Assembly: GCF_036588685.1 (NCBI RefSeq)
Contig: NC_086385.1
Span: 28,233,216 to 28,297,215 of the forward strand
DNA: 64,000 nt
Source of the DNA: Mytilus trossulus
Lineage: Eukaryota
Direction of reading: 5' to 3'
Position 1 is the first letter of the stretch; every line of letters begins with the position of its first letter. Of the stretch, positions 7,801-52,148 are shown piece after piece. The position numbers were made by a program, and so were the translations under genes. The notes under the pieces are model-generated. The model did no database searches and was not told the origin of the DNA. It was given only the letters and a program-made list of their open reading frames with translations.

Positions 7801-8019
7801 TTTTGTTAAAACCCAAATCGTAAGAACCCAAAATGGAGGATCAAAAGGTATGGAGGTGGATAACATCCATTATATACTTATATGAAGTTATTTTCTTTCA
7901 GATCGATAGGTCATTATTTTTCAGGATCAACCCGGACGATAACATTTTTTCAATACAATGTGCTCCATTGTATAACAAAAATGTACGGAACGCCAACACT
8001 GTCTTATTATGCCCATTTT

Positions 8020-8424
8020 TCATTATATGTTGTGCATTTACCTTTATATGATGTGCATTTACCTTTATATGATGTACATTTACCTTTATATGATGTCCAT
8101 TTAATTATCTGATGTGCACTTGCCATCATATGATGTGCAAACACCTTTATATGATGTGCAAACATCCTTATATGGTGTACAAACATCCTTATATGATGTG
8201 CAAACATCATTATATGATGTGCAAACATCATTATATGATGTGCAAACATCATTATATGATGTGCAAACATACTTATATGATATGCAAATGTACTTATATG
8301 ATGTGCAAACATTCTTATATGATGTGAAATTATACTTATATTATGTCGAAAGATCCTTATATGATATGCAAATATACTTATATGATGTGTACATATCATT
8401 ATACGATGTGCAGTTTCCCTTATA
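8020..8424 (+). repeat. 21-bp tandem array in the left arm of A (resumes at 9618-9740)
   Basis: Unit about ATGATGTGCAAACATCATTAT; source of the heptad pseudo-ORFs in the track. Confidence 0.95.
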
Positions 8425-9617
8425 TACTGAGTGCCAATGAAAATGCAACACTTGGTTTTTCAAAAATAAAATTTATATTAGAAATGATAATCTTTCAAAA
8501 TGAATTGTTCTTGAAATTTAACAATTCTAACAATAGATCGATATCAAACAAAAATGTGTCATTGTCATCTTTCAGACGCTATAGGTACACGAAATATCCA
8601 ATGTCGAATCATCAACTCACAGTCCTAACAAAACATGTTACAACCCTGCTGTGCAGAGCAATTTCGACAGCGCCGTGGATCTTATCATCCCGGATGTTTA
8701 ATGTGATCTCGGGGAATGTTGTTCCACTTTTCCCGCATATCAAACTCAAGCTGACTTTATGATATTAGTGGTGGTTTTCGTCTAAACCATGTCCAATCTG
8801 ATGCAAAATTCGCTCGATCGGACCAAAATCGGGCGAAACACACGACTTTTGGCCACGATGGGTGCCAAATGTCTATGTAACCACCACTGACGGAATTTGG
8901 TGCACAATGAATGATTTTTGGTCTACAGAATTCGATATTTACGCCTTACGGCCGTTTAGATGTCACTGAGGAAAGACTTAGTGCTCTTTAACAATTTCTG
9001 CGCAAATGGTGCTTTACTGAAATTGCTCAAAAGGATCTACCGTGACCACCATTGAACTCTCGTGACCTTTGTACAGCCATCAGAGTCAATATCGAATATA
9101 TTTAAGACCAAATGTATTGGTCTGGTTGAGCGTTTCTTGCTTTTTGTACCCCGGGATGTCGCGTATCATTAAATTGAATTTGTGGATGATTTGGGTTATG
9201 GAAGAGGCTCCAACTTCAGTCTTCTCGTAATTGTATGCAGTGAAAGGCTTCATTGGATCATGCCCAAAACTGCATGTCGCTGGTTGTCAGAAAGTCCTGG
9301 CTTTACTCAGATGTTTATTGCAGTTTCCTAACAATAAGGGCGGGAAAATTCATGACATTAGCCAAGCTTTAAATGACAAAATCGTGAAAATGGTGCGTAC
9401 AATGTAAACTATGTTGAAAAGCAGTGAACTCTGTTTATGTCCGTTCAAAATAATCCTTACTTCGCATTTGTTCCAAAAATCACTCAACCGTAAATTTGTG
9501 GTCAATTGTCTTAAAAGTCATTTAAACCAACTATACAAAGTTCTAATATAAATAAAATAAAAATTATAACATTTTTTTTGAAAAATAAAAGTGTTGCGTT
9601 TTCATTGGCAATCAGTT
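8425..9617 (-). mobile_element. Decayed Tc1/mariner transposon inserted in the A array
   Basis: About 45-bp TIRs (tACTGAGTGCCAATGAAAATGCAACACTT and AAGTGTTGCGTTTTCATTGGCAATCAGT); minus-strand WP..SPDFGPIERILHQIG (~8790-8855) and IRS.RRCRNC resemble the Tc1 WPxxSPDLNPIE and C-terminal motifs; TA site. Confidence 0.85.
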
Positions 9618-11196
9618 CATTATGTGCAAACATCTTTATATGATGTGTTTTTGTCATTATATTATGTGCTTGTAATCTTATATTATGGGGTTTTATTTAC
9701 TTCATTATATGATGTCGAAACGTCATTATATAATGTGCTTTCATCGTCGTTATGGTCAATGAAAATGATTAGGATTAGAATGATTACCGTGTCTACGTCA
9801 TAACTGATACCGATCTGCTTCTGCGGAGTAACCGTTACTACTAATTAGGATCAAATCTGTAGCTACCGTTAGGAAAATGGTTGAGACATTGGCATGTTAG
9901 TACCTCGTTTTAAGATGCAAAAATTATCACATCTAATATTGTTGGAAAATTGTAAAAAATATATATTAGTTGTTATTTATTTTTTATTTTTTATCTTTTT
10001 GTTTGTTTGATATCTTATGTATTTGAAGATTTTTTTCGTCAAATAATCGATCACAGATATCATTTGTTTCAAAACGTTTAACGATATCCTGAAATTCATT
10101 ACATGACGTCACAAAGTACTTCGGTTTTTAAATATTCTAAAAATAACCGTGCAATATGCTCTAAGCAATATGCTTTTTGCTATCCGCCGTTTTCTTTCTA
10201 CCTTCGAAAATATAGTTTAACATGTGACTATCCCTAAACGAATCAAATTTGTTAAAATATATGAATTAATAACATTAATAAATATACGGAGTCTACAATA
10301 CGGTTAAGGTTATTAGATTTAAGGAATAATTCTTTTATGTCATGCTCTATGATCGTTTTAACGAGGGAAGGCATTATATTTGTCAATTTCGGTATACCTA
10401 ACGTTAGCATTTTTTCTATAAGAAGTTAATACACGAATTTCAGCATTTTCATTTATGTTAATATTGCCTTGCTGATCATTTTAGTGTTCAAGTTTCTCTT
10501 TATATATTCTCAAGATAGACACACACAATTGGGAATAAATCGGACTCTGATAGCGGAATGGCTCACATAAGGAACCGGTCAGTTGTAACTCCCCCCCCCC
10601 CCCCCCCCCCCCCCCAAAAGGAATAGAAAGAAATAAAGGGGCCTTTATTTTATTATTTTTGGAATGGAAAAGTGGCATTCAATTTTTATAGTTATAAATT
10701 AGCCGCGGTATAATGTTATGGCAAATTCTTCGTCAACCGTAGACATCAAATTTACGTATCGTTCCACTCACCTGAATTGTTAAAACCTGAAAATTTAGTT
10801 TCAAAAATTTCTTCTAGCAGTGAATTTTTCATCTGATGCTATTATTGAATGAAGGTGTGGTAAATGTTAATGAAACAACAAACGGCAAATCCGAACTAAG
10901 TTCCCTGAAGTCGCAAACAACTTTCATACTTCAGTACTTTGATTATATATGTTCTCGTCTATACCTTGCAATAATAGCCAATAAAACAACAAAACTCTGA
11001 AAAGCCAAAAAGTAACTTTACTATAGAGTATATTCAGACACATTGCATTTTTTTTAATCTATTATGTTTCCAGGATAAACGCAAAATATTAAAAGCCGCT
11101 GCCGCAAATCTTCACTTTGAAAAATTCAAAACACCACTTTCTATCTGTAAGAGAACAACAGGTCTCAGTAAAAAATAGATAAATGCAGTGTTTTAA

Positions 11197-11860
11197 TAGA
11201 TATAGGAAGATGTGGTGTGAGTGAATTTAAAAAGTAAACCATTATAGGTTAAAGTACGGCCTTCAACACGGAGCCTTGGCTCACACCGAACAACAAGCTA
11301 TAAAGGGCCCCACAATTACTAGTGTAAAACCATTCAAACGGGAAAACCAACGGTCTAATCTATATAAACAAAACGAGAAACGAGAAACACGTATATATTA
11401 CATAAACAAACGACAACTACTGTACATCAGATTCCTGACTTAGGACAGGTGCAAACATTTGCAGCGGGATCAAACGTATTTAATTGATCCAAACCTTTCC
11501 CCTTTTTTCTGAAACAATAGCATAACATCACAACATAGAAAAACATACGATAAAATATCAACTGGCAGACTTAACTCAATCAAAAAACGTATGATTACAC
11601 AATGAACGAATATATTTGATCTGCAATATCTGAATACGAATGCACAGCTAATTAAATATTAGAGACAAACATTCATGACCAAAAAGCTAACAAACAAATT
11701 CAAACACAGGACATCACTGAGTAATATTTAACCAATCAATGTTCACTTTAGAAAAAAACCGTTTTTTTATAATCTTGAAGTTTATACAAATGTTGTAAGA
11801 ATAAGCGAAAAATTGAAGATATTACAAATAATCATAGCTGGTGTACAGGCAAATACAAAT
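11197..11860 (+). repeat. Abundant dispersed repeat (agatgtggtatga...tacggccttcaac family)
   Basis: The same head recurs at 6470, 17470 and 22410, and inverted at 12850-12975, 21870-21960 and 39140-39390. Confidence 0.7.
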
Positions 11861-12359
11861 ATAAATAATTTGAAGGCTGAAATTTCATTGACTGATATAA
11901 AATATACAAGGACAGAAAGTAGAATGACGTGTTGTCAGATCCTTGTATCCACAGCTTAAACAGATGATCTGTACATTATATGTTTATAAATAAAAGTGTT
12001 AGAAACCGACTCTAGTGTGAGGGAAGGAGGACGTGTATTTCCTTGTTCTGAATTAATTTTTGAAAAAACTGGTTTATTGTTTTTTTTTTAAGTTTCATCA
12101 TTGTTTTATTTTTTCCTCATTTTAAATGGAAACAAACTATTTCGCCTCCCTTCTGAAATAGATAAAATCTCTTTAAATTTAGAATCAAACAGTTACAAAA
12201 CAACTTGCCCTCCCCCCCCCCCACCCCCCCCCCCCCCCCACCCCCACACTCACATAAAAATATCGATGGTCGGTACGAATGCCCTGTTTAATTGAGTCTA
12301 GAGGTCTATACAAGTATATGAGCGGCTTCCCACGAAACCTTTTATACTGCATGTCTAGT

Positions 12360-12690
12360 GTGGTGGTACTTTCGTCCTAGCATGTTCGCCTTGAGTGAGG
12401 GAGGTCGTGGGTTTGAACCCCAGCCGGGTAAAAACCAAAGACTTTAAAATTTATATGTATATGCTGCTTCCCATCTAATTATATAAGCACGCGGGATTAA
12501 GGATTAAGAGCAAAAGCTGGTCGGCTCGGAATCAGTAAAATGTGTCCGGGTAAGGTGATTTAAATGTCTTCCTTCGAAATGCTACCTTTTGAACTAGCAT
12601 GTTAAAAAATCTGGCTCAGGGTGTCGGTCTAATACAAAATAGGGTTAATATTCATATCACATTAACATGTTCTTGTACGAATATGCATAT
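12360..12690 (+). mobile_element. tRNA-derived SINE, Meta-domain-like
   Basis: B-box-like gggtttgaacccc, then aaccaaagactttaaaatt..tgctgcttc..aagagcaaaagctggtcggctcggaatcag, matching the MetaSINE body as I recall it. Confidence 0.65.
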
Positions 12691-12994
12691 ATCAATTTGC
12701 CGTTGTACGTCAAGAATTTACCCATAATCATCTATAGTTGAAACTGTGAAATATATGCACGCAAATGTAATGCACCGAGTTCAGGTTCATTCCATATCTC
12801 CTTTAATCTATTTCGGGTGAAGTGATGGGCGTTCGGTGTTCGAGTATTTGGGCCTTTTATAGCTGAATATGCGGTATGGGCTTTGATGTTGAAGGCCGTA
12901 CGGTGACATATAGTTGTTAACTTCTGTGTCATTTTGACATCTTGTGGAGAGTTGTCTCTTTAGCAGTCATACCATAAGTAGTATAACTGCTGTA

Positions 12995-13208
12995 TCACTA
13001 GCATGTTAACACTAAGGTGTGCGATTTCAAATCCCGTACGTGTAAGGTAAGCTCGACTCCAATCATAATTGACCAAAATTGTCTGTTTTCTAAACGAAGG
13101 TCAGGGGGTCTCTCCAGGCACTTCGGCTTTCTCCACCAATATAAACTCACCGCCACAAAACAGCATGAAAGTGTTGAAAGTGGCGCTAAATAACAGTCAA
13201 TCAATCAT
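12995..13208 (+). mobile_element. SINE, V-domain-like, with (TCAA)n tail
   Basis: Degenerate B box, core ggtctctccaggcacttcggctttctccacca, then gtgttgaaagtggcgctaaa and a tcaatcaatca tail. Confidence 0.6.
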
Positions 13209-13339
13209 CCACACCGGTATACTTATGGCCTCTAAATCTATATATTTAGTCTCCCAAAGTCAATGTATGACATCAGTATACAAAGATAAAAAATAATAAC
13301 TATTTACACTATAATATACAAAACAAGAGAAAGAGGTTT

Positions 13340-15615
13340 CAAAATTACTAAGCCAGCTGGAGGACAAACGCACGTGTTTATATTTCTTTTAGAAACGAAC
13401 AAGCTGAAGTTGACATTTAAGAGAAATCTTGTACATCCTTCCTGTTTTCAAGTTTTCGTACAGGGCTTAACCCTTTAACATTCAAGGATTTTTTTACCTT
13501 TTCTTCCCGAATAAAGGATATCTGTTTTCAATCAATTGCACATTTCGATAAAAAGCTCACTCAAAGGACAAGTTAGACTCATCTGATAGATAATTGACCA
13601 AGGTTTCAGGAAAACTTGATTTAAGGAAAATAATTTCTTACGTTGGTCACGTGATATCCTTCAAAAGTTACGTGACATGCTGAATTAAAGTGAGAAAAAT
13701 GTACAATTCAAGCGGAAAAGCGGTTTTACAGACATTTAGTGACAAAAATAGAACATAGTTTTAGTGTTAAATTAATGCATGAACTGATGAAGACTTTCGG
13801 AAACGTTATCGGTGAAAATTTTATACAGAAAGATGCAAAACTTGTCTGATTGGTAGAAATATCAAGACTCGAAACACCGAAAAATAGTGGATTTTTTGAG
13901 AATTTTTGTCATAGTCAAATAAATGGCCCAAGTTTATGTTAAAGATGTGCTATTCATAACTGCTTACAGAATAAGCCTTTAGGAAAGAATTTTGAGTAAA
14001 TATTGAATGAAAATCTGGTATTTTTGAGTGCCCGGGCTAAGAATGTAACAAAAACAGAGAGAGGGGAGAATTTTTTCTTTTTGATGTAAATCATGTATTT
14101 CAGTTGTCTTAATTGAAATTGAAAGTAAAGTAAACTTAAGTTAAGTTAAGTTACATTTAATATAGGAATTTATTTTTTTAAGTTAAGTTAAGTTAAGTTA
14201 AGTTAAGTTACATTTAATATAGGAATTTATTTTGTCATCCTCCGGCAGTGAGGTTTGAACTTAAGTTAAGTTAAGTTACATTTAATATAGGAATTTATTT
14301 TTTCATCCTCCGGCAGTGAGGTTTGAACACGCGATCATCCGGGTGTAAGACTGTGCATCTTTCCACTGAAAAACAGAAACCATTGGAAATCTTATGAAAT
14401 TTAAGCATATAAGTCACCTTCTCTGTAAGACAAGAAATTAATTTTGGTAGAACATAATCAAACTTCGTTTTTTTAAGAAGCTATTTTTTGAAAATTTTTA
14501 TTTTTTGAAGCAAATTTGTAAGAAAGTTATTAAGAAATGTTCGTTTTTTCGTCTATATGTTACTATTTCTATACCTTAGCGATACGATATCCAACACCCT
14601 CATAACCAGACACTAAAGAAACAAAGATTTGTTATTGCTATTCCGACTTGGTTGGCTAACAATTTTTAACACATTTTAGATATTCTCATCTCTTTTGCTA
14701 TAAAAACTGACAAAACAAAACATGAAAATTCCTTGTAATTTGAGTTTGTTTCAGTGTTGATACTCTATGAATCAGATTTTTGTATGTGTATGAGTTTTAC
14801 TTACAGTTTTGATAGTATTCTTGTAAATGATCACGGCACAGTTATCAAAATTGTCATTTTAAAACAAAAAACAGCAACAATTTGTCTTGTGACATTTTGT
14901 GAAAATATTCTATTTAAAAATAGAAATAAAACAGTTTTCCCCCAAAAAAGTCTTGTCAATATAGGGCAAATTGACATAATGCATTGCATTTTGTTGGTTT
15001 CAAACACCAAAAATCAAGTTGGTGGTATACTGATCTTCAATTTGAGCCCACAACCACATATGTACGTCAAAAATTGTCAACGATACAAAACTTCATGCAA
15101 ACTACCCCGCCACAAATTTTGCTTAACGGTCAAATTGACCGGTAGGAACGTTAAAGGGTTAAGGTCTTATCGGATAAATGTTTTTGTCATATTAAAATTT
15201 CCCGTTTTAATAACAACAATTCCCAAATAGTTATATTGTATTATCATCTTAATGTTAGTATCATCGTAAGAAAATCAGAGATGTTTTGGCTTCCGTCCAA
15301 CAAAAGAAAACCACTAAGATTTAATTTTGTCAACTTAACTTTCAAGTTCCAAGCTTACAATACTCATGGAAAGCATTGAGATGAGTCTGCAGGTCCTGTG
15401 CTGTTTCAGCCAACATCACCGTGTCATCTGCAAACAATATAACAAAACACTTAAGATATATATCTAATTCTCTTTCCAGATCTTCTGGTATAGTTCTGTT
15501 AAGTCCTGTAATATTTTTAGTCACTAAGAAATTATTTTAGTCAATCAAAAGTAAATAAAATAGGAAAGATGATAAGTTTTCTCCTTGTCGAACACCATTG
15601 TCACAAGCAAGCAAA
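13340..15615 (-). pseudogene. Non-LTR retrotransposon RT remnant, split by a piggyBac-like insertion
   Basis: Minus strand GVRQGENLSSFLF (~15555-15600), ILFADDTVMLAE (15342-15524 ORF), YNYLGIV (~15215-15238); continues beyond the insertion as ALYENLKTGRMYKISLKCQLQL (~13400-13466). Confidence 0.85.
13471..15158. mobile_element. Non-autonomous piggyBac-type element
   Basis: TTAA|CCCTTTAACATTC ... GAACGTTAAAGGG|TTAA; 12/13 TIR identity and TTAA TSD; interior has (AAGTT)n and short duplications at 14130-14330. Confidence 0.85.
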
Positions 15616-16169
15616 GTATTCCGAAATATAATTACCACCGTGTATCATCGGTACAGCGGATATAGCTTTATAGGTACTTCGAAGCGTGAAAAACTATATA
15701 TCGTACATTCATTTAACTATGCACCGTACGGAAGGATTTATGTGGTCAGCTATACACAACGCTTCTTGCTGGAATAAAATATCGAAACATAACATAGGTA
15801 TAAAATATTTCAATGCCAATTATTGAAACAGCTATACTTATTACGTACAAACAGTGGCCTTCTATCATAAAAAGAGTTGCAATGAATATAGAATCATATC
15901 GGATGAGACGAGCGCCAACTTCTTTGACAAATATTTGCACATGTTTTTAGTAAGGGTTCTTGTTTTGGGCAAATAGTGAGACTTCTCTAATCACAAACCT
16001 ACGACCAAATCATTTCTTAAAACAACAAATGTTTAGATTAGAGTACACATTGATATAATGTAAACAAAACAAAGATTTTTGTACCGTGTCAGACGAAAAA
16101 TCGATCACGACCCCTTGGTTAGTACCTTTATCTATGGAACGCCATGACTGCCTTATGTTAATGATCAGC

Positions 16170-16680
16170 ATTATATTCAGTGCTCACAACATTATATTAA
16201 GTGTTCACACCATTATATGCAGTGCTCACAACATTATATAAAGTGCTCACAACATTATATTAGAAGCTCACAACATTATATTAAGTGCTCACAACATTAT
16301 ATTAAGTGCTCACACCATTATATAAAGTGCTCACAACATTATATGCAGTGCTCACAACATTATATTAAGTGCTCGCAACATTATATTAAGTGCTCACAAC
16401 ATTATACTAAGGAATCACACCATTATATAAAGTGCTCACAACATTATATGCAGTGCTCACACCATTATATACAGAGCTCACAGCATTATCTGCAGTGTTC
16501 ACACCATTATATTAAGTGCTCACATCATTATATTAAGTGCTCACAACATTATACGCAGTGGTCCAAACATTATATGCAGTGATCACAACATTATATGAAG
16601 TGCTCACAACATTATATGAAGTGCTCACAACATTATATGAAGTGCTCACAACATTATATGAAGTGCTCACAACATTATAC
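16170..16680 (+). repeat. 21-bp tandem array, left arm of B (about 24 units)
   Basis: Unit ATTATATTAAGTGCTCACAAC. Confidence 0.95.
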
Positions 16681-17788
16681 GTTTTTTGTTGTATGATGAG
16701 ATTGATGTATGATGAGATAAATGAATGATGAGATCATTCGGTAAACTTCGTTTTTTAGCGGAAATTACCGAATCCATAATTGGTAAATTACGGTAATGTC
16801 CAGCAAACAAATTTAAACAGTTATTAAAGTCATGTTATCATAAGGCATTATACAATATTTAAAACTGATTGAAATAAGTAAGGAAAAGATGAAACTAAGA
16901 AAAACGATTGGCAAAATGTAAGTTAAATAATAAAAAGTTTATTTAATGAAATATCGAATGAAAATTTGTATGATATGTTCCTCGAGTTTATTTCCTACTG
17001 AAGAACTTTAGCAAGGTACCACTTTATAGTCCGTACTCATTTTTAAAAAGCTTTAATTATTACCTTTTAAATAAAACAGTCAGCTTTCTATAACACATAA
17101 GTGCCATATTACGCTAGCTTATATATGTCATGATAGTCATTTTTGGCAACGATTTTCAGAATTTGACAATTTTACATGATAAGTATCTAACAGATATGGA
17201 AAATGCAGTTTAAAGCATTTCAACTTTACATCAATTATTCCAATTTTTTACAAGCTTTTAAGCACGCCAAGTGCTATGTCTTCTAAATATGATCAGCAGT
17301 CTTATATAGAAATATAAACTTTCATAAGAAAAATTTACCCTTTCAAGACCCAGTTAAACATTTTCATTTAAAGTTATCAGCTCTTATGAAAACTGAGTGT
17401 GTGGGGATGAATAAAACGTTTACTACGTTTGTTCGTCAGTTTGCACGTTTAATATACATACATGTATATAAAAAAATTGGTATGCTTGCCAATGAAACAA
17501 CTTTCCACAAGAGACAAAATGACATCACAGAAATTAACAACCAAACGGCCACAGTACGGCCTTCAACAATGAGCAAAGTTACTGACAGCTAGTTCAAAGC
17601 CACTAACAACTAATAAAAAAAAACATGCATCTGAGTTTTGCATTTACATAAAGATTGAAACAAACTGTGAGTAAAAAAGAATGATTTACTATTATTGGAT
17701 AGTAACGATTGTCCATGAAAAAAGAGTCATTTTCAATGCTCTTCAACTTTGTACTTGTTTGGATTTATAAAACATATTTTGACATGAG

Positions 17789-17829
17789 CGTCACTGATGA
17801 GTCTTATGTAGACGAAACAACATCTGGCG
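17789..17829 (+). ncRNA. Degenerate type I hammerhead ribozyme motif (retrozyme/PLE-associated)
   Basis: cgtca-CTGATGA-gtct(tatgt)agac-GAAA-caaca-TC-tggcg: core boxes, stem II and stem I present; stem III damaged. Confidence 0.7.
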
Positions 17830-18799
17830 AACTAAATTATAATCCTGGTACCTTTGATAATTACTTGACCTAAATTAATTCTGGTTAAGTAACATTAAGA
17901 TACAAAATATAATCAACTACAAGTCATAGAAGAATAATATCTTTTAGATCGCACTTCCTTGATAACAATGGACCTCGAAAAAAGATTCAAATTTGTGTTT
18001 AGGTCCAGATGTTAGCAACAACACATAAAAGAGGAATGCAATTTGTTGCTGAGCGCTCCTTTGATTTTATTTTAAGTCCACACAATTTTATTTATTTTTT
18101 AACAGAAGCACAAAAAAAAACGATACAAGTTATTATGTCAATATATAATTGTAATATAATTATATTAATGGAGAACTTCTAAATCTAGTATTGTTTTACT
18201 GTGAATTCTTCTCGTTGTTGTTATTGGCGTTCTAATCCTTCCCACATACAAGCTTGTCTAAAGTCTGTTTTTTTTTGTTATTTTTGCTACCAATTTTTTT
18301 CCATATCCCAGGTTAGGATCAATGTAAAAGGTTGAAAATTTCATATCTGAGTATTTTTTTCGTTATCTGGAAAGTTACTTTTGACGACGCATCTTGATTG
18401 TTTATGTAGGGCTTCTTTCTCATGGATAGGGATCACTCACGGGGAAAAAATGGAAAATTTTCGAAACTAATTTGACTTTTATGTAAGCAAAGTCCGAATT
18501 ATATTATTAAAAGAATTTAAATTCACAAACTAGTTATTTTGCACCAAACATTGCTAGGACATGCCTTTTTAAAATATGATTGAAAATATTATATGTTTAA
18601 GTAAAATTATATTTGCAATTGCTGACCAACGTTGATAATTAAAAATATGCAATGAACAGTATACTTCTGACAGATATTTGGTTCTCCTTGAAAAATACTG
18701 GGTTATAACATATCTTAATCACAATCCCTAGTAAACTGAATATATTTATTCAGAAATGCACAATATATAATTTTTCTGTGTATAAATCTACATGTTTTA

Positions 18800-20320: not shown

Positions 20321-20694
20321 TTATGGTGTAACTGATCCTCAAAATAAATTTAAAATGCCCTGCATGGTGTGGAATAAATTTGTGTTAAATTGATCATACT
20401 TCTTAACTTACTTATTTCAATCAGTTTTAAATATTGTTATAGATGATAGTTAAAGGCAACGATATTACAACAACTGTTCAGCCATTACATTTACAAATTA
20501 TAATCTCAACAATTGTATACTGCCTTAACATGATAACATATAACAATAACTGTTTAAATTTGTTTGCTGGGCATTAATTTACCGTAATTTACCAATTATG
20601 GATTCGGTAATTTCCGCTAAAAAACGAAGTTTACCGAATGATCTCATCATTCATTTATCTCATCATACATCAATCTCATCATACAACAAAAAAC

Positions 20695-22166: not shown

Positions 22167-22197
<31 letters not shown>

Positions 22198-36525: not shown

Positions 36526-36723
36526 TTTTCCACAATAAATGGAAATTATTTTTTTCCTGAAAATAATTTGTTTCCATTTTTGGAAAGTGCTTGGAAGCAG
36601 AAGGATTGATAATCTGAATAAATACACTCAAATTGAGCACAAACAACTGATAAGTGGCCTGGACTGGACAAGTCAAACCATTCATGTGACCATGCTATGA
36701 CAATCACATCCATTTAAAAAAAA

Positions 36724-39585: not shown

Positions 39586-39939
39586 TTCCATCTTAATCAG
39601 TGAACTGAATAATTGTTTTTTGCAGAAGTCCAGGGAGTGTTAAAAATCACATGTGCAAGACTTACACAGGGACTACACAATCTCGAGTACACAATACTTT
39701 TTCAGAATGTCAGCAAAAAAGAATCACTGGTGACAGGGGAGTGTAATCGATGAATTGATCCTGAATCAGATAAGATTTTCCCGGTACGTCTAAACACCGC
39801 TCAGGAGGACCTCCTGGGTGCACACATGCAGGGCATACAAAGTGCACTCATGGCAGATCCTATATAGTCGCCGTCGTATCTGCACACATGATGAATGTAT
39901 ATATTCGTTATAGATCGTCATCTCTTCTCAATTTTGGAG

Positions 39940-39994
39940 CATCTTCGCTAGAGAGAGAGCGGGAGTGGATCGTAACCCTTGGCTAGCGAAGATG
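39940..39994. mobile_element. 55-bp mini-element with 12-bp TIR and 9-bp TSD
   Basis: ATTTTGGAG|CATCTTCGCTAG ... CTAGCGAAGATG|ATTTTAGAG. Confidence 0.65.
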
Positions 39995-41350
39995 ATTTTA
40001 GAGTTAAATTTGCAAGCAACCTCTTAAGATTTTAAAATAATAATGGCTACTAAAAATATATTATTGCCTCCAATTTTCGCAATTTTTTCGCCATATAAAA
40101 TATTTAGGCGACTGTGCTTTTAGTGAATATAAACGATGACGAGGCCTCACGAATAAATATAAATATGAAATATACTGGAACATCGATTAGCATAGATCGA
40201 GCAGCAGAGTAAACTTCCACATAAATCTCGAAGTTATTTACGCCGGATGATATAGACTGTGCTCCTGAATAAAGTTGTCAAATACATTAATTTGTGTTTT
40301 TTACTTCTACAAGAAATTTGATTCAAATGCTAATTACGCACCATTTGCTGAGCAGAGAATCATTCTAAGCCAGGAACCGTCTATACTAACTGATAACAAC
40401 TAGTAAGAATAGAAAGTCTCTGTAAAAAGGCAGTCAATCCTAACAGAACTGTATTAACTTAATGATACATGTACATCAAGTTCCAGCACCTCAACATTGA
40501 AGCACCCCTGCCTTGCATACTGAGATGGCAAACTGGTGTGTGTCAGTATTTTAATATAAAACTGCGTAGGTTCATATCGTTTGATTCAACGTTTGTTTGG
40601 TTATTTTTTAATGATCGTTGTAAAATTATATCTAAATCTTTGTTAAAATACGAATTTAAATTGTTCAATTCCTTCTATTTCATAATTTTGTCAAAGTCTA
40701 CTTTTTAAAGTATTAAATTTTACAGAAAAAAATAATATTCCATTTTGATTTGAAGAAAATCTTTTTGAACCGTCATGACATGGTGTTGCAAAGCTGATTA
40801 CAGGTAACTATAACATACAGTAATTTTCCATTACGACAGTGCGTGTATTCTCGGGTGTGTATAACGTATAGTTTTCTAGAGAACATCCTGTCTACGTGTA
40901 TTACAGATTGATGACATTATACAACATTTCTTTGGTTAAATGTGATAAGGTATCTGTGTCCATTCCCTATTTCAACGCCACTAATTTTTCGAAGAAAAAA
41001 AAATTAAAAAAAATTATATGAAATTAAGAAGAAAAGTAGCAAATATAAACTTCAGTAATTGCGCATTGAGTAAACATAATTTCAATATTGCATGAACAAA
41101 TCCGTGAGAAAACGTATATATACATGTATGAATAAAGATGTGTTTAAAAAGACGGCTTTATTTCACACTAGGACCTAAGATAACTAGAACTAAGCAATGG
41201 TTGATCCAGAAATTTTCATAAGTGGGGACTCATTGACTGCCTTAGAGGGGTCACGTCCAGTCATGCTTCCGTGATTCCCTATATAATCTACCATTTGTTT
41301 CCCAAGATTTAGGAGGGGGCTGGTACACTCATATATATATAAATATACCT

Positions 41351-41510
41351 CTGCGGCGGAGCCAGCCATTTGAAAAGGAGGGGGTCCCAACCCAGGACAA
41401 AAGGGGGAGGGGTGGTTCCAACCATATGTCCCCATTCAAATGCATTGATCGTTCAAAAAAGGGGTGGTTCCAACCCCAGAACCCCCCCCCCCCCCCTGGA
41501 TCCGCCACTG
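41351..41510. mobile_element. Short GC-run MITE with CAG..GCGGATCCAG-type TIR
   Basis: ATACCT|CTGCGGCGGAGCCAG ... CTGGATCCGCCACTG|ATACCT; related fragments at 25460-25555, 41195-41320, 43940-44040 and 44560-44616. Confidence 0.7.
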
Positions 41511-44044
41511 ATACCTAGTATGCATATAATTAAGAACAGCTTTGAATATATGCATATAGAATATATATTACAAATGCCAAAACCTGCAAGAAAGAAACAT
41601 TTATATTCGGTGATTTTTACACTAAACGTTTTCGTAATTTGTTTTGAAAATATTAAAAAGTACATGTACATCGTTTTTTCAAGATTTGTATAGTAACTGG
41701 TTTAATTAAGTCCCCTTGATGAAATTTAAATTGCGAGACGCTAATTAATAAACTATGATCTATCTATCGGCATTCGTCGTTATTTGGGATACGTCACGGA
41801 TGACCGATGGTCATATTCAATACGATATACCAATCATCATTTGAATTAGGTCAATTGATCTTTAATAATTAGGACTAATTGGTGATGGCAGAGAATAAAT
41901 CGCTGGTGAAGATTAAAAACATATAGAAGTAAACTTTGCCAAAAAAAAAAGGTTTCCTTGGAAATAATTATGAAAATATATGAATATGCTAAATATTTTT
42001 TTTTCCGAAATAATAATTAAAGACGTTTAGAAATAACAAATTTTCACAGTTGGGAAATTTTCAATTCAAGTTATTTCATTTTGAAAACGTTGTGTGGTCA
42101 TTAGTAAGTTTTCTCTTTGTTATAGCTCTGGGGCCTTGTCTTTATGGAGTATCCCAGTTAAATATTTCGACATCTTATATGACTCTTATATCCTTGAAAC
42201 AATGCAGATCTACATTTTTAATGCATATTAGACGAGAACTTTATTTTATATAGATCAGACCATTTCATGAAATTATGTTTTGCCAAATATGCAAGAAAAG
42301 TCGTATACCAGTTTAACGTTATTATAACGCGACCGTCAAATTACGGTTACGGGGACATTTCATTGGACATCTTAGATCGTTTCGGATTTTCTACCTGCAA
42401 CTCAAACAAAAGTAGATATCATATCATTTTAAAGGAAATTAAATGTGTTTTCCATTCATATCAGTTAACAGGTGATAAAAATTTGAGATATAGTAGAATT
42501 TCGTTTGATAAAAAGCCTCTGAATTATTCTTTGTGTTATTTTGTCCATCGGGACATTTTATTGGACACGGGGAAAATGACGATGTTTTTAAAATAAGACC
42601 GCAGTTACATAATGATGACTTCAGATAGCTTCTTCGGAACATGTATAATTTTTCTGATATTATTAAAATCCATTTTCGTATGTTATATATTATGTAATTA
42701 AAGACAGAAAGGTTTTTTACGGGTTGAGCAGCAAATTGGGACATTTTTTCTCTTTTTTGTTTAAACTTTTCTGACGATCTTCCTACTCTTATAGTCAAAA
42801 ACGTCTATTGCTTCATTTAACGTTAAATTTATACAATATAATTGTAAAATTTTAAACCATTCTACTTACTAATGAATCCGCACTGGGATTTCAAAGACGC
42901 ACCTAAAACAAAATTGTAACAGCGGGACACCCTTAAAATGACGTTATAGGCATCGAAATGAGCATTTTTTTTTCATTAAAAAATTGACAAAACACAAATT
43001 CATCTATGTTATTGATTTCTATGGTTTATTTCCTTTCGAATGATATGCATAACATGGCTATTTATTGTATAGGATAAGAGCATGAATTTGAATAACACGC
43101 TATCTAACCCATATTTCCAAAGTGACACCAATATCGTGCGCAACGTCATAACCATTATATTTCATGACACTGCATGAAAAAGAAATGGACTTATCGCATA
43201 ATACCAGAACCAGAGACATATATATTGTATCTAATATCTCTGCCAGAACTAAAAAAAAATAAATACAGTAAGTCCACATACACATATTAAGAGGGTATGG
43301 ATGTGAATTAACAGAATAGAGAACAAAGGACAAAGAAAAAAAGGAATAAAGAATAGTGAAAGAAAGAGAATAATGTTGAAAAAGTGTAAGTTATTAAAAA
43401 TATAACTTAAAAAAGAAGACAGAAAAAAGACACCCCTCCGAGACGAGCCTTACATGCATTGTTATAATTCAAGGTTAATTTTACGGCGGCTCATTTTATT
43501 TTGGCTTAGAAATAAACATAATTGACAAGTTTCCTTCCCCTGCATTCTCGATCCCACATGTAAATAGCACGGTGATTTCAAAAAGACATTGATACATCAT
43601 TACAACAGTTTCACTTGCCGTCAGTATTTGAATATATTGATGAAGAAGGTATAGAAGATTAATGCACGCACACTATTATCCACCACAGGCCTAAATAGTT
43701 AGTCCGCAAACAACGAGGGTCATAAAAACCCAGCACTTTGAACACAGACACCGGCATGGTGTGAATCTGAAAGCTTCCCACTATCCATTTCTACCCATAG
43801 AAAACTTTTGCCTTTCATTTATCAACAATGAAATATGTTGATATTAATGGTATATAAGAATTATTGGGGAATTCAAACCATTCCTATTGTAAGTGATAAA
43901 ACTGAATTTATATCGGGGTGATTGAAACGAGGAAAATAAAGGGGGGATCAGGAGTTCAGGGCCCCCTGTTTGGGAAAAGAATTAGTTGATTATATATGGA
44001 ATCACTGAGTCATGGCAGGAGCAGGCCCCTCTTAGGCAGTCGAA

Positions 44045-44545
44045 TATGCTATTATCTTGTAAACGGTCCAGATCCCCATCCCTAAACCATATATATTTTT
44101 GAATGGGACGATAAAAAAAATCAAATGAAATTAAAAGGAGGTCTTAGGGGGTTACCCCACCCTGCTCAATTTGAGAATGTGCTATTATCTTGTGAACGAT
44201 CCAGATCCCCACCCCTAAACCATATATATTCTTGTCCATGTTGTCGGGGACAATAAAATTAATAATGAAATAAAATAAAAGTGAAGTCCAACCCCCTCTA
44301 GTTTGAAAACTTGTAAACAGTTAACATCCCCACCCCTAAACCATATTTATATATTTTTGTAAAGAACAATAAAACAAATCAAAGGAAATATAGGGAGAGT
44401 CCATGGGGTTCACCCCCACCCCCACATGTTTGAGATCCCCTGTCATCCAGTGGTTAGGTGAAAAAATTTCAGGATCCCTGATCCCCACCCTCAAACCATA
44501 TATATTCTTGTATGATAATGCGACAATAAAACAAATCAAATGAAT
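44045..44545 (+). repeat. Degenerate tandem repeat, about 120-155 bp, four copies
   Basis: gatccccacccctaaaccatatatat recurs at ~44072, 44204, 44326 and 44480. Confidence 0.75.
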
Positions 44546-45811
44546 ATAGGACCATCCCCTTTGTCTTGGGTTGGGACCCCCCCCCCCCTTTTTTTAAATG
44601 GCTGGATCCGCCCCAGCATACCATCTAGCTATCTATAAAGGCTTTTAAAATATGGAATCAAACAAGGAAATTAACAGTGTAGGCAACTGTCTTGAATTTA
44701 AAAAAAGTCTTTTACATTACCATGATTACATATATAAAAATGTTAAAAATTTTTGTGCATTTATTTTTGCTTATCGTATTTTCAATAATGGACAAAATTG
44801 CATGATTGAATATTGTAATTTAAGAAAAATCAGCATACATGATATAAAATGGGAAGTGGAAACTGGGAATTTGACAAAGAGACAACAATCCAATCAAAGA
44901 GCAGACAACGGCCGAAGGTCACCTATGGGTCTTCAATGCAGTGAGAAAAATTCGGCACTGGTCTTCAGCTCATAAATATGTATCAGAAATGAAAACGAGA
45001 TACAGCTTTCAGTTGCATTAATAAAAACCTCACAATAAGTTCTGAATATCAGAATATACAGTTCTGCAAGATTCTCTCAAAATGTAGACATAGAGCTGAA
45101 AAACTGTCAGTGACTGTAAAATTAATCATGCTTACATTAAAGTCTATGGAGTCTATCTTAATATGCATACTCTCGTACAAAGGAATATAAGTATGCAATA
45201 GACATCAAGTTTTCAAAAATAAGAGTATCTATGCCATTGATTTACAATATTTTAATCAAGTAATAATTTCGGTTTGTTTAAATATTTCGGAGGTTAGTAT
45301 GACCTCCTCTTTGGTGATGATGTGTTCGTTTTAAATTTGGGAAAATTATTTGTACATGTACCAACAAAAATAAAAACACAAAGTCAATCTAGAATTATGT
45401 TTTTATCATTTTTTTATGTTTAGGTTGTCAGCAAGATGAAAAGGACAAGTATGCAGTTCAAAATTCAAAATGTGGATAAGTTGAGGTTCTAGGTCTTACC
45501 TTTGCAGATTTTCATATTTTGCATGAATGAATTCAAAGGTTATGTGATGGACAGCAGAGAAAGAAAAAAACAACTTTACAATTATCCTGCTCCTGGATAA
45601 ATGTAAAACATCTTGTTTTTCGGTAAGTTTCATGCTCTGTTTTGATAGTGTTAGTGCATTCATCTTTCCAGTCTTTCCTCTAAATTGTAAGTTTTTGGTG
45701 AGTGTTCACCATGAATTTCAGTAAGCATGGTAAGTAACTTGTGGATTTACATGTATATATACTCAAAATTTAGTACTAATATTAATGGGATTTGAGCATG
45801 ACATCCGGCCA

Positions 45812-46415
45812 AATAAAATTGAGAATGGAAATGGGGAATGTGTCAAAGAGACAACAACCCGACCAAAATAAAAAAACACAACAGCAGAAGGTCACCAACA
45901 GGTCTTCAATGTAGCGAGAAATTCCCGCACCCGGAGGCGTCCTTCTGCTGGCCCCTGAACAAATATATACTAGTTCAGTGATAATGAACGCCATACTAAT
46001 TTCCAAATTGTACACAAGAAACTAAAATTTAAAAAATACAAGACTAACAAAGGCTAGAGGCTCCTGACTTGGGACAGGCGCAAAAATGCGGCGGGGTTAA
46101 ACATGTTTGTGAGATCTCAACCCTCCCCCTATACCTCTAACCAGTGTAGAAAAGTAAAAGCATAACAATACGCACATTAAAATTCAGTTCAAGAGAAGTC
46201 CGAGTCTGATGTCAGAAGATGTAACCAAAGAAAATAAACAAAATGACAATAATACATAAATAACAACAGACTACTAGCAGTTAACTGACATGCCAGCTCC
46301 AGACTTCAATTAAACTGACTGAAAGATTATGATTTCATCATATGAACATCAGGCACAATCCTTCCCGTAAGGGGTTTAGTAACATACCATCATAACATAT
46401 ATGAAAAGAACATGC
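45812..46415 (+). repeat. Well-preserved abundant dispersed repeat
   Basis: Head aaattgagaatggaaatggggaatgtgtcaaagagacaacaacc; degenerate relative at 44845-44970. Confidence 0.65.
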
Positions 46416-46431
46416 TTGTTAATCATGTTTA

Positions 46432-46716
46432 TGTTCCAGAACATACAAGTATTTGGACTGTATGCATACAGTCTGCCCAATTTTAAAAAGTTGGTCAAGT
46501 TTATTACAAACAAATGTATAGTACAGATCAACATAACTGAAATCTTTAATAGATTAATACAAAAAGTTTAATTGCAGTTAAAATAAAAACACAGGTTTGG
46601 TCGAGCTGGTACCAGACAGTACAAGTATACTTAAATGGTCTGACTATACACATATGGTGGGACTGTAAGTTCTGGACCGTAAAAGTAAGATCCGAATACT
46701 GATATGGTCTGGAACA
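46432..46716. mobile_element. Older copy of the Ginger-like MITE family
   Basis: TTTA|TGTTCCAGA ... TCTGGAACA|TTTA; exact 4-bp TSD; CpG-decayed palindromes. Confidence 0.8.
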
Positions 46717-47141
46717 TTTATACATGTCTTAAAATTAATATCAAACACATTGGTGTTTTTGAACTTGGTAATAAGTTATTTGATAGAACTATAATGTTTT
46801 GGGATATCAAAATCAAAAATATCCCATTTTTACTTTTGATAAAGAAGAAGATCATTGATGTATGTTTAAATGTATATTAAAATGAGACAGCAAGCCAACA
46901 ACACAAAAAATAAGGATAAAACATACATATTTTTTTTGTATCAATGTTATAATTTCCAATATGTTCAAAGAGTTCAAGGTATTTTTTCATTGAAATAAAA
47001 CACAAATTGAAATCTGTCTGAACTTCAAAAGCTTAAAGAAATATTGTTTCTGTTGTCTGCATTTTGTATAATATATTGCAAATTCTTGTGAATAATGGAA
47101 TGTTATTATAGTTGTCTAAAGTTTTAACATTGATCTTTATA

Positions 47142-47346
47142 CTGTAAATTCATAAATTATTGTGTGCATTTATTATTGCGATTCTGTCATTTTAGACTTA
47201 AATGCGATTTTAAATTTTACGATTTTGAGAAAAATCCTGTTTAATCCATATAAAATATTTCATAATGCGAGTTTAAATTATTGTGTCTACAACTCTGTTG
47301 CATTTTTCGCAATAAAAAAAAAATCGCATTAATTCTGAATTTACAG
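47142..47346. mobile_element. Tc1/mariner-type MITE
   Basis: TA|CTGTAAATTCA ... TGAATTTACAG; degenerate relative at ~44740-44830. Confidence 0.65.
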
Positions 47347-49809
47347 TTTATATATATACTATGTATATAACTTGGGAAAATACCCAAATGTTATAAAGAA
47401 GAATAATTTAATTGATTGTTATATGGTATTAGAATAGGAAGATGTGGTATATTGCTAATTTGACAACCCTTCATCAGAGACCAAAGGATGTAGGCTGTTA
47501 GCAACTGATGACACTGGACAACCTGTAACAATCAGTAAAATCCATACCGCATAGCTATTTTTATTGAAAATCATATTATTGCTACATGTATGAAAACAAT
47601 TTTGTATAATCCATTACTTTAGATTTTATTGGTTCTTTTTCAGAAGGATTGAAATTCACCACCTAGAATAAATGGAGAAAACATAGAAACAAGACCAGAA
47701 TAAATTCGAAGACAAAAGTTGGATCAGTTATTATTTTCATCACTCAGTCAATGATTTGAAGTTCTTTTAAATTCAAAAAAATATTGAAACCACAATAATG
47801 TCAAAGTTCTGTACTGAATGTCCAAAAAGTGGACTATACCATCAAACAATGCTGGATGATAAGAAACTATTAATGTTTTGTGTTGAGAGATATGGCAAAT
47901 AATTGTGTTTCAAGAAAGTATTCTATAATTCATGAATAAACATATATTGATACTTACATTATCTGCTTTGTTGTTTAAAAGTTTAGTTTTGAACAGTTAA
48001 CAAATGTTAAAGAACAATATGCTAAATTAACATTTCCCAAGAAAAAAAGATATTCAATTAAAAAGATTCATCTTATAATAATTTACTACCAAATAGAATA
48101 CATTGTAACATACACATTACTGTTTATATATATCTATATATTTACAATTAGAATCCCATAGGATTTTAATTTGTCCCATGGGATATTGAAAATCCCATGG
48201 GATAATAAAAATCCCATGGGATTTTTTTTGTCCCATGGGACAACAAATATCCCATGGGACTACAATAATCCCATGGGACAAAAAAAAATCCCATGGGATT
48301 TAACCAAAATCCCATGGGATAATGGTTAATCCCATGGGATTTAGCCCTGTCCCATGGGATATTGAAAATCCCATGTTTTTATAATTCAAATTGCAAAATA
48401 AATATGAGAGAAACTGTAGAAACCCAATGAAATTATTGAATCCCATGTAATTCTGCACATTTTGGTTATATACATGATATTGTAGCTCTTGTTTGAGGCG
48501 GCGGCGGATTTGCAAATGAGTGTTTTGCAAATTAAAAGTGTCCAGTGTTCATAATACATATTCTTTTATATACAGCTATGTCGTAATAACGACATAGCTA
48601 TTTCGTTATTACGACATGTTATGTCGAAATTACGACATGCTTTGTCGTAATTACGACATAATATTTTTTTTTTGAATGGCCCTTATCGGCTTCCGTAGTA
48701 CATACATCACTATGTCGTAATAAAGACATCACTACATATGTCGTAATAACGACATCACTTTGTCGTAATAACGACATCGCTATATATATAAAAAAAAAGA
48801 ATATGGTTTATATATTATGATTGCCAAGAGACTAAATTACACAGAAATTAACAACCATATGTCATTGTAATGACTTCAATAATGAACAAAGCCCCCGCAT
48901 AGCCAGCTATAAAAGGTCACAAAATGACAAATGTTAAACAATTTAATTCAAACGAGAAAATCAACGGCTTTATTAATGTACAAAAAAATGAACGAAAAAT
49001 AAATATGTTACACAGCCACTGAATTACATGCTCCTGATCTCATAATTAGGACAAAATTAGCGTTATCACTTTTTGAGGCGATAGGAAATTCGATATGGTC
49101 GTTAGTGAGAGCAAAGTTTGTAATTGATCTTTTTTCAGAATAATGAACACCAAATGCAATCTAGCCTACAGTTATATTACTTGCACACAATACAACTTTA
49201 TTTTATAATCAAGTATAATGAGACCCGGTTGCACAGGGGAGCGATTCAGACTCTTTGGAGCCACCAGTTATGTTTGACATGTACAGATTCATGTAAAATA
49301 AGACTGCATTTCTATTGCAGGTTATAAAGAAGAGGAATTGTTTAAAGCTTTTCGCAATAAAGACTATGTTAAATTTTGGACTCATAGTGCTCAGACCCAT
49401 GGACCTCTGTACCATCATTTGTACACAATTGAATCTTAATGTCCTACTGATGCTTGATGCACATTACAAAAATACAGCGTCCTCCCCATTGAAGCCTTAA
49501 TTATAACTTTGGACCTCAAGTTTTTTAAACAAATATTCCCCATGACAACTATTCCTACAAACTTAGGGAGAGGTTTATGATACCACTAACATGTTTAACC
49601 CCGCCACATTATGTATGAATGTGCATGTTCCAAGTCAGGAGTCTGTACTAAATAAAGGATCTAAATAGCCTGAATCGTTCATCATTTCAATGGGTCCCAT
49701 TATACTTGATTATGAAATAAAGTTCTATTATGTGCATACATATAGATTAAATAAAATTAATATTAATTATGAATAAACTTGATTGAATTCAATGTTTATC
49801 ATTATAAAA

Positions 49810-50936
49810 CTAGAGGCTCTAAAGAGCCTGTGTCGCTCACCTTGGTCTATGTGAATATTAAACAAAGGACGCAGATGGATTCATGACAAAATTGTGTTTT
49901 GGTTATGGTGATGTGTTTGTTCATCTTAATTTACTGAAAATTCTAGCTGCTTACATTTGTTCAATTATCTCTATATATAATTAACTTGGCCAAGTAGTTT
50001 CAGAGGAGAAGATTTTTGTAAAAGATTACTAAGATTTACGAAGAAATTGTTAAAACATGACTATAAAGGGCAATAACTCCTAAAGGGGTCAACTGACAAT
50101 TTCGGTCATATTGACTTATTTGTAGATCTTACTTTGCCAACATTTATTGTTTTTTTACAGTTTATCTCTATCTATAACAATATTCAAGATAATAACCAAA
50201 AACAGCAAAATTTCCTTAAAATTACCAGTTCATGGTCAGCAACCCAACAACGGAATGTCGGATTTATCTGAAAATTTCAGGGTAGATAGATTTTGACCTG
50301 AGAATCAATTTTACTTCAATGTCAGATTTGCTTTAAATGCTTTGGTTTTTTAGTTATAAGCCAAAAACTGAATTTTACCCCTATGTTCTATTTGTGGCGG
50401 CCATCTTGTCTCGTCACACATTTTTTAAACTAGATATCCAAATGATGATTGTGGCCAAGTTTGGTTTAATTTGGCCCTGTAGTATCAGAGGAGAAGATTT
50501 TTGTAAAAGATTACTAAGATTTACAAAAAATTGTTAAAAATTGACTATAAAGGGCAATGACTCCTAAAGGGGTCAACTGACCATTTCGGTCATGTTGACT
50601 TATTTGTTAATCTTACTATGCTGAACATTATTGCTGTGTACAGTTTATCTCTATCTATAATAATATTCAAGATTAAATAACCAAAAACAGCAAAATTTCC
50701 TTAAAATTACCAATTCAGGGTCAGAAACCCAACAACGTGTTGTCCGTTTCATCTGAAAATTGTAGGGCGGATAGATCTTGACCTGATGAACAATTTAACC
50801 CCATGTCAGATTTGCTTTAAATGCTTTGGTTTTTGAGTTATAAGCCTAAAACGAACGACGACAGACGACGGACGACGGACGACGGACGCAAAGTGATGGA
50901 AAAAGCTCACTTGGCCCTTTTAGGCCAGGTGAGCTA
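49810..50936 (+). mobile_element. Complete HINE (Helentron-associated, pearl/DINE-like) element
   Basis: 5' hairpin aggctct/agagcct plus subTIR gctcacc; about 485-bp core x2; (GACG)-rich microsatellite; 3' hairpin agctcac.tggcc..ggcca.gtgagct; flanked by A runs. Confidence 0.85.
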
Positions 50937-52148
50937 AAAAATGAATATGTTCACGATAGGGTTTTGATACAAACTTTGCCCTTACTAGCGGCAATTTTAA
51001 AACAGGTGAAAAGTTAACGTAAAAACTCTTTTTAAGGACCCGGATATTAGGTACATAATGTATACTTATACTAACTTAAAGTTTAAACTCTGTCATTTTA
51101 GCGATCTTGAAAAGAAGATTTTGTACATTAATTCTTCAAAGTCCCTTGGGGCCATTAGTTTTAACCAATTGGTAACTAAGTAACAACACTTGAATAGGAC
51201 ATTATAGGGTACACGTATATCAAGTTTGATTCAATTCTGATAGGTGGTCCTTAAAATAAAGATAAAAATAAATTCCACTAGTGTATCAATGCTCACAAAG
51301 TAACAACGGTTGTCGTAATTACGATATAGCGATGTCGTTATTACGGAATAGCGATTTTGTTATTTCCACATACTATGTCGTTATAGTACGACACAGCGAT
51401 GTCGTTATTACGACATACTACATGTTTGTCGTGGTTACGACATAAATAATATTTTTTTCGAATGACTCTTATCGGCATTCGTACAATATACTTTTAATTT
51501 ATTAACTGTAACATAAAATAAACTTATGTTCTTGTTATAATTTTGAAATTATTGTTTAGTCTGTTATCATTTGTTTTGAATCGGTTCGTTTATTTTCTCA
51601 GTTGAATAGTTTTTCATTTGTCTAGTGTGGGCCTATAATATGTAACTATGGGGTACGGGTGATGCTCATTCTTGAAGGCCATATACTGACCTGTATTTGT
51701 TAATTCAGCCAGTTGGTCTCTAGTAGAGAACTACCTCATTCGCAATCATGCTATATATTCTTTTTATTTGTATTTCCATCAGTTTGTACAATGAATTGTC
51801 TACACAACAAAAAGTTTAGACGCAATGACAAACATGCGTTTGACAATGTTTTTCCCGGTCCTCAATGATGCTGCACGTAGTATTTTCCTCTTTCTGCATG
51901 CGAATTGGGTCTATATTGAAAAAAAGAATTATGTACAACTATAAAGAAGACAGTGGAAATGATATTCAAAAGAACAAATGATTCAATTAAATTAAAACTA
52001 AAAAAATAACAATCGTATTTTCTTCCATGTACAATAGAAATGAGTTAAAGAAGTACTTACCTGAGTGTACAAGTGATGACACCTAAAAGATGAAATAAAT
52101 CTTATATATGTGAAATAAAATGCTCATCGAAGTTTGGTTGCAATATAA

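Follow-up and report, generated by a model that had tools for sequence, protein, structure and literature searches.

A nest of gene-less, foldback-shaped transposons of IS3EU type and a second AAC...GTT type in the mussel Mytilus trossulus

The stretch of DNA examined here (the window, 64,000 bp, C13:28233216-28297215; C-numbers are contigs of the Mytilus trossulus assembly GCF_036588685.1) comes from an AT-rich genome of 1.3 Gb with 33% GC. Self-comparison and a tandem-repeat scan of the window, followed by inspection of the end sequences, reveal five elements with inverted arms, termed E1 to E5, whose union amounts to 37,431 bp, or 58% of the window. E2 lies inside E1, and E5 inside E4, which in turn lies inside E3. 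We consider it highly probable that E1, E2 and E4 are gene-less elements with IS3EU/GingerRoot ends and E3 a decayed relative of E4, that E5 has different ends and likely belongs to a group with a DUF7869 transposase, and that all five were likely moved in trans by the transposases of full-length relatives elsewhere in the genome.

E1, which we class as a gene-less IS3EU element, occupies 7984-23580 (15,597 bp). It has TAYGGAACGCC ends, an exact 6-bp flanking duplication AAAATG at 7978-7983 and 23581-23586, and 21-bp arrays found by the tandem-repeat scan at 8020-8412 and 23208-23542. Inside its right end, at 22539-22700 on the minus strand, lies a decayed piece of the first transposase exon of a full-length element of the B family. 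E2, placed in the same class, spans 16133-21326 (5,194 bp) within E1, with an exact TTTATC duplication and 21-bp arrays at 16169-16679 and 20696-21290. The second group begins with E3, an old and decayed element of the E4 family at 29650-51483 (21,834 bp; duplication CAATGT/CAATAT, 5/6). Its left arm is split by E4 into 29650-29700 and 48703-48915, and its right arm is at 51311-51483. E4, of IS3EU type and gene-less, is at 29701-48697 (18,997 bp), inserted 51 bp inside the left end of E3; it has TACGGAAGCC ends, a 5-bp duplication GTACA and a palindromic 21+22-bp array at 29739-29976. The right arm of E4 is split in turn by E5 (33802-48549; 14,748 bp), a gene-less element that we assign to another superfamily, with AAC...GTT ends, a 4-bp duplication CATA, and arms of ~460 bp with 19-bp arrays around the palindrome CCCATGGG at 33976-34161 and 48152-48375.

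The spans of 15.6, 5.2, 21.8, 19.0 and 14.7 kb given by an earlier, sequence-only reading of this DNA hold in both the self-comparison and the printed ends. The description of the elements as giant applies to the outer spans. Without inner elements the bodies of E1, E3 and E4 are far smaller (10,397, 2,832 and 4,245 bp, beside 5.2 kb for E2 and 14.7 kb for E5), so that the size of these three is in good part a matter of nesting. The same reading listed three exact 6-bp duplications, one matching at 5/6 and one of 5 bp. The last two are those of E3 and E4, and AAAATG and TTTATC also stand, but TCATAA around E5 gives way to the 4-bp CATA. Its estimate that a 6-bp match arises by chance about once in 2,000 is close to the 1 in 2,060 that we compute for the window. 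TAYGGAA(C)GCC-like ends had been ascribed to four elements; TA..TA termini (TAYGG..CCRTA) are present at both ends of E1, E2 and E4 and absent from E5, while both ends of E3 are mutated (CACGG, TACGA). E3 is the weakest of the five, its arms being only 73% alike. Its interior consists almost wholly of common repeats. A Pfam search of 44 of the 108 window-element frames of at least 62 aa gave nothing above the cut-off; an ADH_N match in a window frame (E 0.007) fell below it and was dismissed. An Rfam scan of 7000-52000 returned no match.

Do these structures move as units? Matches to the three end patterns number 326 (E1/E2 type), 258 (E3/E4 type) and 181 (E5 type) genome-wide, with 100 listed per type, and reversed-pattern controls gave 0 matches for each. 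Pairs of a plus end followed by a minus end were tallied by eye from the printed flanks among the matches listed. There are 20 such pairs of the E1/E2 type (17 with an exact 6-bp duplication, one 5/6, one of 5 bp and one with none) and 17 of the E3/E4 type (14 exact 6-bp, one of 5 bp and two with none). Pooling both IS3EU end types, 31 of the 37 listed pairs have an exact 6-bp duplication, compared with the 1 in 2,060 expected by chance; this genome-wide tally, suggested as a check by the sequence-only reading, bears out the pairing. Whole copies are found at other loci. E1 is collinear with copies of 6.6 and 7.4 kb on C1 and C2, E4 with 3.7-kb copies on C1 and C6, and E2 is 95% identical over its whole length to a copy on C26 that has a different duplication. 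Empty sites are also present, as paralogous copies within the one genome. With E2 and one copy of its duplication removed, the flanks match an E1 copy on C2 without a gap (93%), and the same operation on E5 gives gap-free matches to the left arm of E4 itself and to two other E4 copies (85-89%). The E4-in-E3 junction aligns only loosely, at 72-73%. The E1 to E5 families move as whole units. Two further features of the duplications may be recorded. Those of the E1/E2 type begin with C or G in 15 of the 17 exact cases despite the 33% GC, a possible target preference, and a 5-bp duplication occurs in 2 of the 37 IS3EU-type pairs in addition to E4.

The genome also contains transposase-bearing relatives. 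Pfam rva_4 has 156 scored matches genome-wide, and 27 of these loci were examined. At 16 of them both ends were located, giving 17 elements, of which 15 show an exact 6-bp duplication; the other 11 loci have no pair. The arms of a 22.8-kb full-length element at C9:50690611-50713394 are 84-87% identical to those of E2 over 550-600 bp, and the two share 21-bp and 16-bp repeats. Those of the 25.2-kb B element, C13:48967926-48993109, are 77-82% identical to those of E1. E1 and the B element align in three collinear blocks, one of which is the exon remnant at 22539-22700 (tblastn 56% identity, E 2e-9, stop-broken), found also in two other E1 copies. The transposases of the C9 and B elements match rva_4 with E-values of 2e-76 and 4e-76, and both have D-57-D-35-E spacing. 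Copies encoding an IS3-like DDE protein, which the sequence-only reading proposed to look for, are thus present with E1-like and E2-like arms. Catalytic D-D-E motifs are found in all 11 transposase frames with a full core, the E of the I family being in a variant motif. A tree of 12 transposase cores separates a TAYGGAACGCC group (6 rows, 84/96) from a TAYGGAAGC group (5 rows, 100/99), indicating that end type tracks transposase clade. By eye, the two clades match IS3EU-1_CVi (WHIDGNHKLIRW) and IS3EU-1_CGi (WHIDSYDKLKPYG) in the supplement of PMC10045372, and the motifs of the C9 and B transposases match those of IS3EU-1_CVi. The ends, the genome-wide 6-bp duplications and the relatives with similar arms together indicate that E1 and E2 are IS3EU elements.

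Of the 12 transposase-bearing elements checked, 9 have arrays of 18-22 bp, or doubles of these, in their arms, so such arrays are a normal part of IS3EU end design here and not peculiar to gene-less copies. Full-length elements of several families carry a second gene. In the C9 and B elements, exons on the opposite strand with SAM, zinc-finger and HECT likeness are convergent with the transposase, and this facing arrangement of HECT exons and transposase is seen in the I family as well as in 6 of 7 complete clade-1 elements. No second gene was found in G, H or a palindromic IS3EU family. The 18.6-kb F element has an F-box/leucine-rich-repeat frame upstream of its transposase (L125:4746-5453), a second ubiquitin-pathway passenger. 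Comparison of the HECT protein with solved structures gave no match. We found no paper pairing a HECT gene with an IS3-type DNA transposon, a weak negative given the limits of the literature searched. Nor did we find a tie between these HECT genes and the dispensable 'E3 ubiquitin ligase 1' of PMC7653742, two supplement files of which make no mention of HECT.

Several families of these transposases are young or have unusual shapes. The I-family transposase is present in 17 copies at at least 98% protein identity, and at C14:15879627-15911946 two 16-kb I-family elements lie in inverted orientation with 130 bp between them; both have a 6-bp duplication of their own and a HECT gene, mostly in a single exon, whose catalytic end (IAHTC) is PTAHTC-like. 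Another rva_4 family has at least 13 copies (L011-L023; L068-L071); those compared are 99.6-99.97% identical in DNA and have more than 15 kb in common, and no ends were found by TAY-type patterns within 30-40 kb. The palindromic IS3EU family (17.6-19.8 kb; C3:58507409-58525022, C11:55065509-55085104 and C10:78209155-78229003; 40 end matches in the genome) has exact 6-bp duplications and arms that reach 6.3-6.7 kb, are 98.5% identical and each include a transposase frame of 436 aa. The frames of the C11 copy are identical and both arms of the C10 copy have the same 13-bp deletion, which points to copying between arms. Deleted copies of the A1 family (L067, L063-L064), with arms of 0.8-1.4 kb and the first transposase exon at both ends, stand midway between elements with short arms and the wholly palindromic family.

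The first 11 bases of E4 differ from those of the I and G elements by a single mismatch, the difference that the Repbase rule for gene-less families allows, as described in PMC4455052. From this sequence match we place the E4 end in the TAYGGAAGC group, with E3 as a decayed E4 relative. No rva_4 gene was found between E3/E4-type ends (TACGGAAGCCGATAAGG).

E5 is of a different kind. All 100 listed ends of its family begin (A/T)ACACTGGACAC. Since this start is common to every listed end, the A that opens E5 and the T that closes it are part of the element, which leaves CATA as the duplication; TCATAA is a coincidence, produced by flanking bases that chance to be the same as these two terminal bases. 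Among the matches listed there are 32 E5-type pairs, comprising 25 with an exact 4-bp duplication, three at 3/4 and four with none, and a 6-bp duplication is found in none of the 25 in either register. A script check on 14 E5 copies gave an exact 4-bp duplication in 11, with 6 bp in the shifted register only in the window copy. E5 covers 77% of a 16.6-kb copy at 94% identity, and 77% of that copy is common to at least 10 of 13 others. The 14 copies (14-33 kb) contain no transposase, their extra length consisting of LINE-like and other inserts, and they have neither an rva_4 remnant nor a DUF7869 exon remnant. An alignment of six copies has no third-position bias and no conserved frame. A loose pattern gave no sister ends among the first 100 of 482 matches listed (control 213).

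The likeness of E5 is to elements with a DUF7869 gene (Pfam PF25273). Seven such loci were examined; three have ends related to E5, and no usable ends were found in the other four. The first, C4:23448354-23463875 (15.5 kb), is bounded by AACA...TGTT with an exact TATA duplication; its arms of ~500 bp contain spaced TTTCCTNNAGGAAA palindromes, and its DUF7869 gene is rich in introns. The 22.2-kb element C1:68476957-68499194 has AACACTG ends. The third end, at C4:42483002, reads AACACTGTGCGGGACA (AACACT...GGACA) and continues into 13 copies of CCCATGGG, E5's own core; only this one end was observed, 14-19 kb from DUF7869 exons. Words of CCCATGGG occur 6 times in 1.63 Mb of other loci, and the alignment score was reached by 3 of 2,000 shuffles. 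E5 thus shares with the DUF7869 elements of this genome AACA ends, the GGACA motif, the 4-bp duplication, arms of ~0.5 kb with CC..GG palindromes and a size of 15-22 kb, but it lacks the gene and its exact ends are not matched. By its end design E5 is likely a member of the DUF7869-transposase group, although none of the three ends lies within one mismatch of E5 over 11 bases. The DUF7869 protein has the acidic motifs IIDGMDQ, QADNC and GHTYEDIDQ. The predicted model of a homologue (pLDDT 36) was too poor for a fold search, and no solved structural relative was found. DUF7869 may be the transposase of the Sola superfamily, an enzyme with a DDD catalytic fold; the duplication made by Sola1 is also of 4 bp.

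These observations suggest how the elements may have arisen and moved. E1 would descend from a B-like parent and E2 from a C9-like one, in each case through deletion and replacement of internal sequence, and all five would be cut and pasted in trans by the transposases of full-length relatives elsewhere in the genome. The 18-22-bp arrays may act as phased docking sites for the transposase, 21 bp being two helical turns, in which case the interior could be any DNA; the palindromic array units of E4 and E5 would suit a dimer. A staggered cut would leave the 6-bp (sometimes 5-bp) or 4-bp duplication.

A number of observations weigh against this account. Among the E1/E2-type ends listed, 60 of 100 have no partner by the exact pattern. 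Inspection of singletons (loci that were not a random choice) showed eight with a partner that has a mismatched end and an exact 6-bp duplication, while about ten others are fragments, tandem duplicates or unpaired. The duplication of E4 in the window is of 5 bp, and those of E3 and of the B element match at 5/6. E4 matches the I and G elements over the terminal 11 bases only; at most 2% of the body is shared, arms and arrays differ, and no full-length element with the whole arms of E3/E4 was found, including by a search with the I transposase. On the side of E5, the first 11 bases have 3, 3 and 5 mismatches to the three DUF7869 ends, more than the one of the Repbase rule, and C1:68476957-68499194 has no exact duplication (AATT/ATAT). 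No full-length element with whole E5 arms was found, and no DUF7869 gene between E5-type ends (AACACTGGAC).

Could the arms be dispersed minisatellites, paired by chance or local inversion or by an artefact of assembly, so that nothing moves whole? The unpartnered ends would be expected on such a reading, as would interiors that hold common repeats, almost wholly so in E3. It is nevertheless very unlikely, given the 31 exact 6-bp duplications in 37 pairs, the collinear whole-length copies with other duplications and the gap-free empty sites in paralogues. The sequence-only reading had taken all five as one diversified IS3EU-like family with 6-bp duplications. Array-bearing arms are indeed present in all five, and a shift of the register by one base does yield TCATAA on either side of E5. 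Yet the uniform (A/T)ACAC start of the E5-family ends, the tally of pairs (25 of 32 with a 4-bp duplication and none with one of 6 bp), the lack of an rva_4 remnant in E5 copies and the end design common to E5 and the DUF7869 elements make a single family hardly credible. The IS3EU assignment is kept for E1, E2 and E4, and for E3 as a decayed relative of E4, but not for E5; the one family resolves into two IS3EU clades and a second superfamily. It is unlikely, though less so by far, that E5 was moved by some other transposase, unclassified or from Kolobok, Academ or Polinton machinery, with its end likeness convergent. The missing direct partner, the mismatches to the 11-base rule and the lack of a DUF7869 exon remnant in E5 copies would allow this, whereas AACA ends in three of seven DUF7869 loci, one of them sharing the CCCATGGG array, argue for the DUF7869 group. 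Polintons have a 6-bp duplication, AG..CT ends and many genes, and were rejected for E5 on its 4-bp duplication, AAC ends and lack of a coding signal. Kolobok duplications are described as TTAA-specific (PMC9587614), and TTAA accounts for only 1 of the 25 exact duplications. Ten DUF6589 loci were tried as partners and none has E5-like ends. One of the DUF6589 elements, of 11.4 kb (L211-L212:5684-17094), has a 9-bp flanking duplication and a helicase-like frame, and we take it to be AcademH-like.

The nesting itself invites a further alternative. The order of insertion is E3, then E4, then E5, and E1, then E2, and this agrees with divergence: the arms of E3 are 73% alike, E4 stands at 80-89%, E5 is 93-94% identical to its nearest copies, and the arms of E1 are 84% alike with E2 95% identical to its nearest copy. 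The transposases might actively prefer to insert into related elements, whether in their arms or in their bodies; the contrary view is that they land there by chance and are tolerated. There are three nestings in the window, two of them in arms. On C1-C4, E4 in E4 is seen in two clean cases with their own duplications, compared with 0.04-0.18 expected (P 0.0007-0.015, post hoc), and E4 in E2, E2 in E2 and E5 in E5 also occur, at loci chosen for their nested look. Self-nesting of the E4 family therefore looks enriched. Against this, the three end families on C1-C4 are not significantly closer together than shifted controls (9 tests, p 0.07-1.0), and local hopping, tolerance of inserts in junk DNA and targeting would all give the same pattern. 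We therefore regard active targeting as rather unlikely, and the proposal that the elements nest in themselves retains modest support for the E4 family only.

How do these elements compare with known systems? IS3EU is described as having TA..TA ends and 6-bp duplications and has been joined with GingerRoot (PMC10045372), and its fungal members are described with TAYGG..CCRTA (PMC12730594). Accounts of IS3EU/GingerRoot describe a DDE transposase of IS3-like type, a second protein beside it in full-length copies (an alpha-kinase in rust fungi) and gene-less forms, 17 of 45 Repbase families being autonomous (PMC10045372, PMC6839031, PMC12730594, PMC8232023). The ends of E1, E2 and E4, the 6-bp duplications and the DDE transposase with a second protein in the full-length relatives agree with this. 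The mussel elements differ in that their partner gene is a HECT ligase. Clubmoss GingerRoot is reported in PMC6839031 with arms of 100-150 bp in elements of 3.9-12.9 kb, in contrast to mussel arms of 0.3-0.8 kb with 18-22-bp arrays. The gene-less mussel IS3EU families measure 3-7 kb, their non-coding interiors being conserved, and full-length copies are up to 25 kb long; in one family the arms extend to 6.3-6.7 kb and both contain a transposase gene.

The long arms with tandem arrays and the lack of genes in E1 to E5 recall the foldbacks (Drosophila FB, Tetris, Galileo), which PMC4079207 describes as gene-less, with tandem-repeat arms around a non-coding middle. The view given there is that the shape arose more than once and independently, as transposases were lost and arms grew. 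The duplications of Tetris are 8-10 bp long, and Mutator is the superfamily in which most foldbacks are placed. The duplications in the window are of 6, 5 or 4 bp, not 8-10, and the parent groups are identified. E1 to E4 are gene-less IS3EU elements of foldback shape with arms longer than those of clubmoss GingerRoot. These families may already be catalogued in Repbase or Dfam. No description of AAC..GTT ends was found in the literature surveyed.

Beyond the nest, a stop-free frame of 5,352 codons, of Thr/Ser/Pro mucin type, runs from 52149 to the end of the window at 64000 and on to 68207, starting 670 bp after E3, with an EGF-like and membrane-spanning exon downstream (L099:888-1157). An acceptor site for splicing near 52179 points to an internal exon, and the nest may thus sit within an intron of a gene for a membrane mucin. 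On the minus strand at 52061-52082, a 22-bp stretch with a strong acceptor and a GTAAGT donor resembles a micro-exon of an antisense gene. Four inverted-repeat elements of MITE size are at 1399-1553, 18948-19733, 26619-27134 and 49182-49736, and no convincing duplication was found for these four.

The elements are real and well accounted for, and the nest that they form is ordinary transposon biology: foldback-like variants of superfamilies already known. We think it unlikely, if worth stating, that two unrelated transposase groups in mussels arrived separately at foldback-like ends with docking arrays in helical spacing, that such ends let them move 3-25 kb of arbitrary DNA, land preferentially in kin and grow arms that copy the transposase gene, that both groups are still active and account for much of the hemizygous presence/absence DNA in Mytilus genomes, and that E5 represents an unnamed AAC...GTT lineage of DUF7869 elements. 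IS3EU is known mostly from database entries, according to PMC8232023 and PMC11934779. With matched gene-less and full-length pairs, two clades that end type follows and young families, end recognition and transposition become directly testable. In practice, such arms pass for minisatellites, and the HECT and transposase frames for genes of the host. What part transposons play in the presence/absence variation of mussels is a question that PMC7653742 leaves open; multi-kilobase elements with clean duplications are easy markers for that variation.

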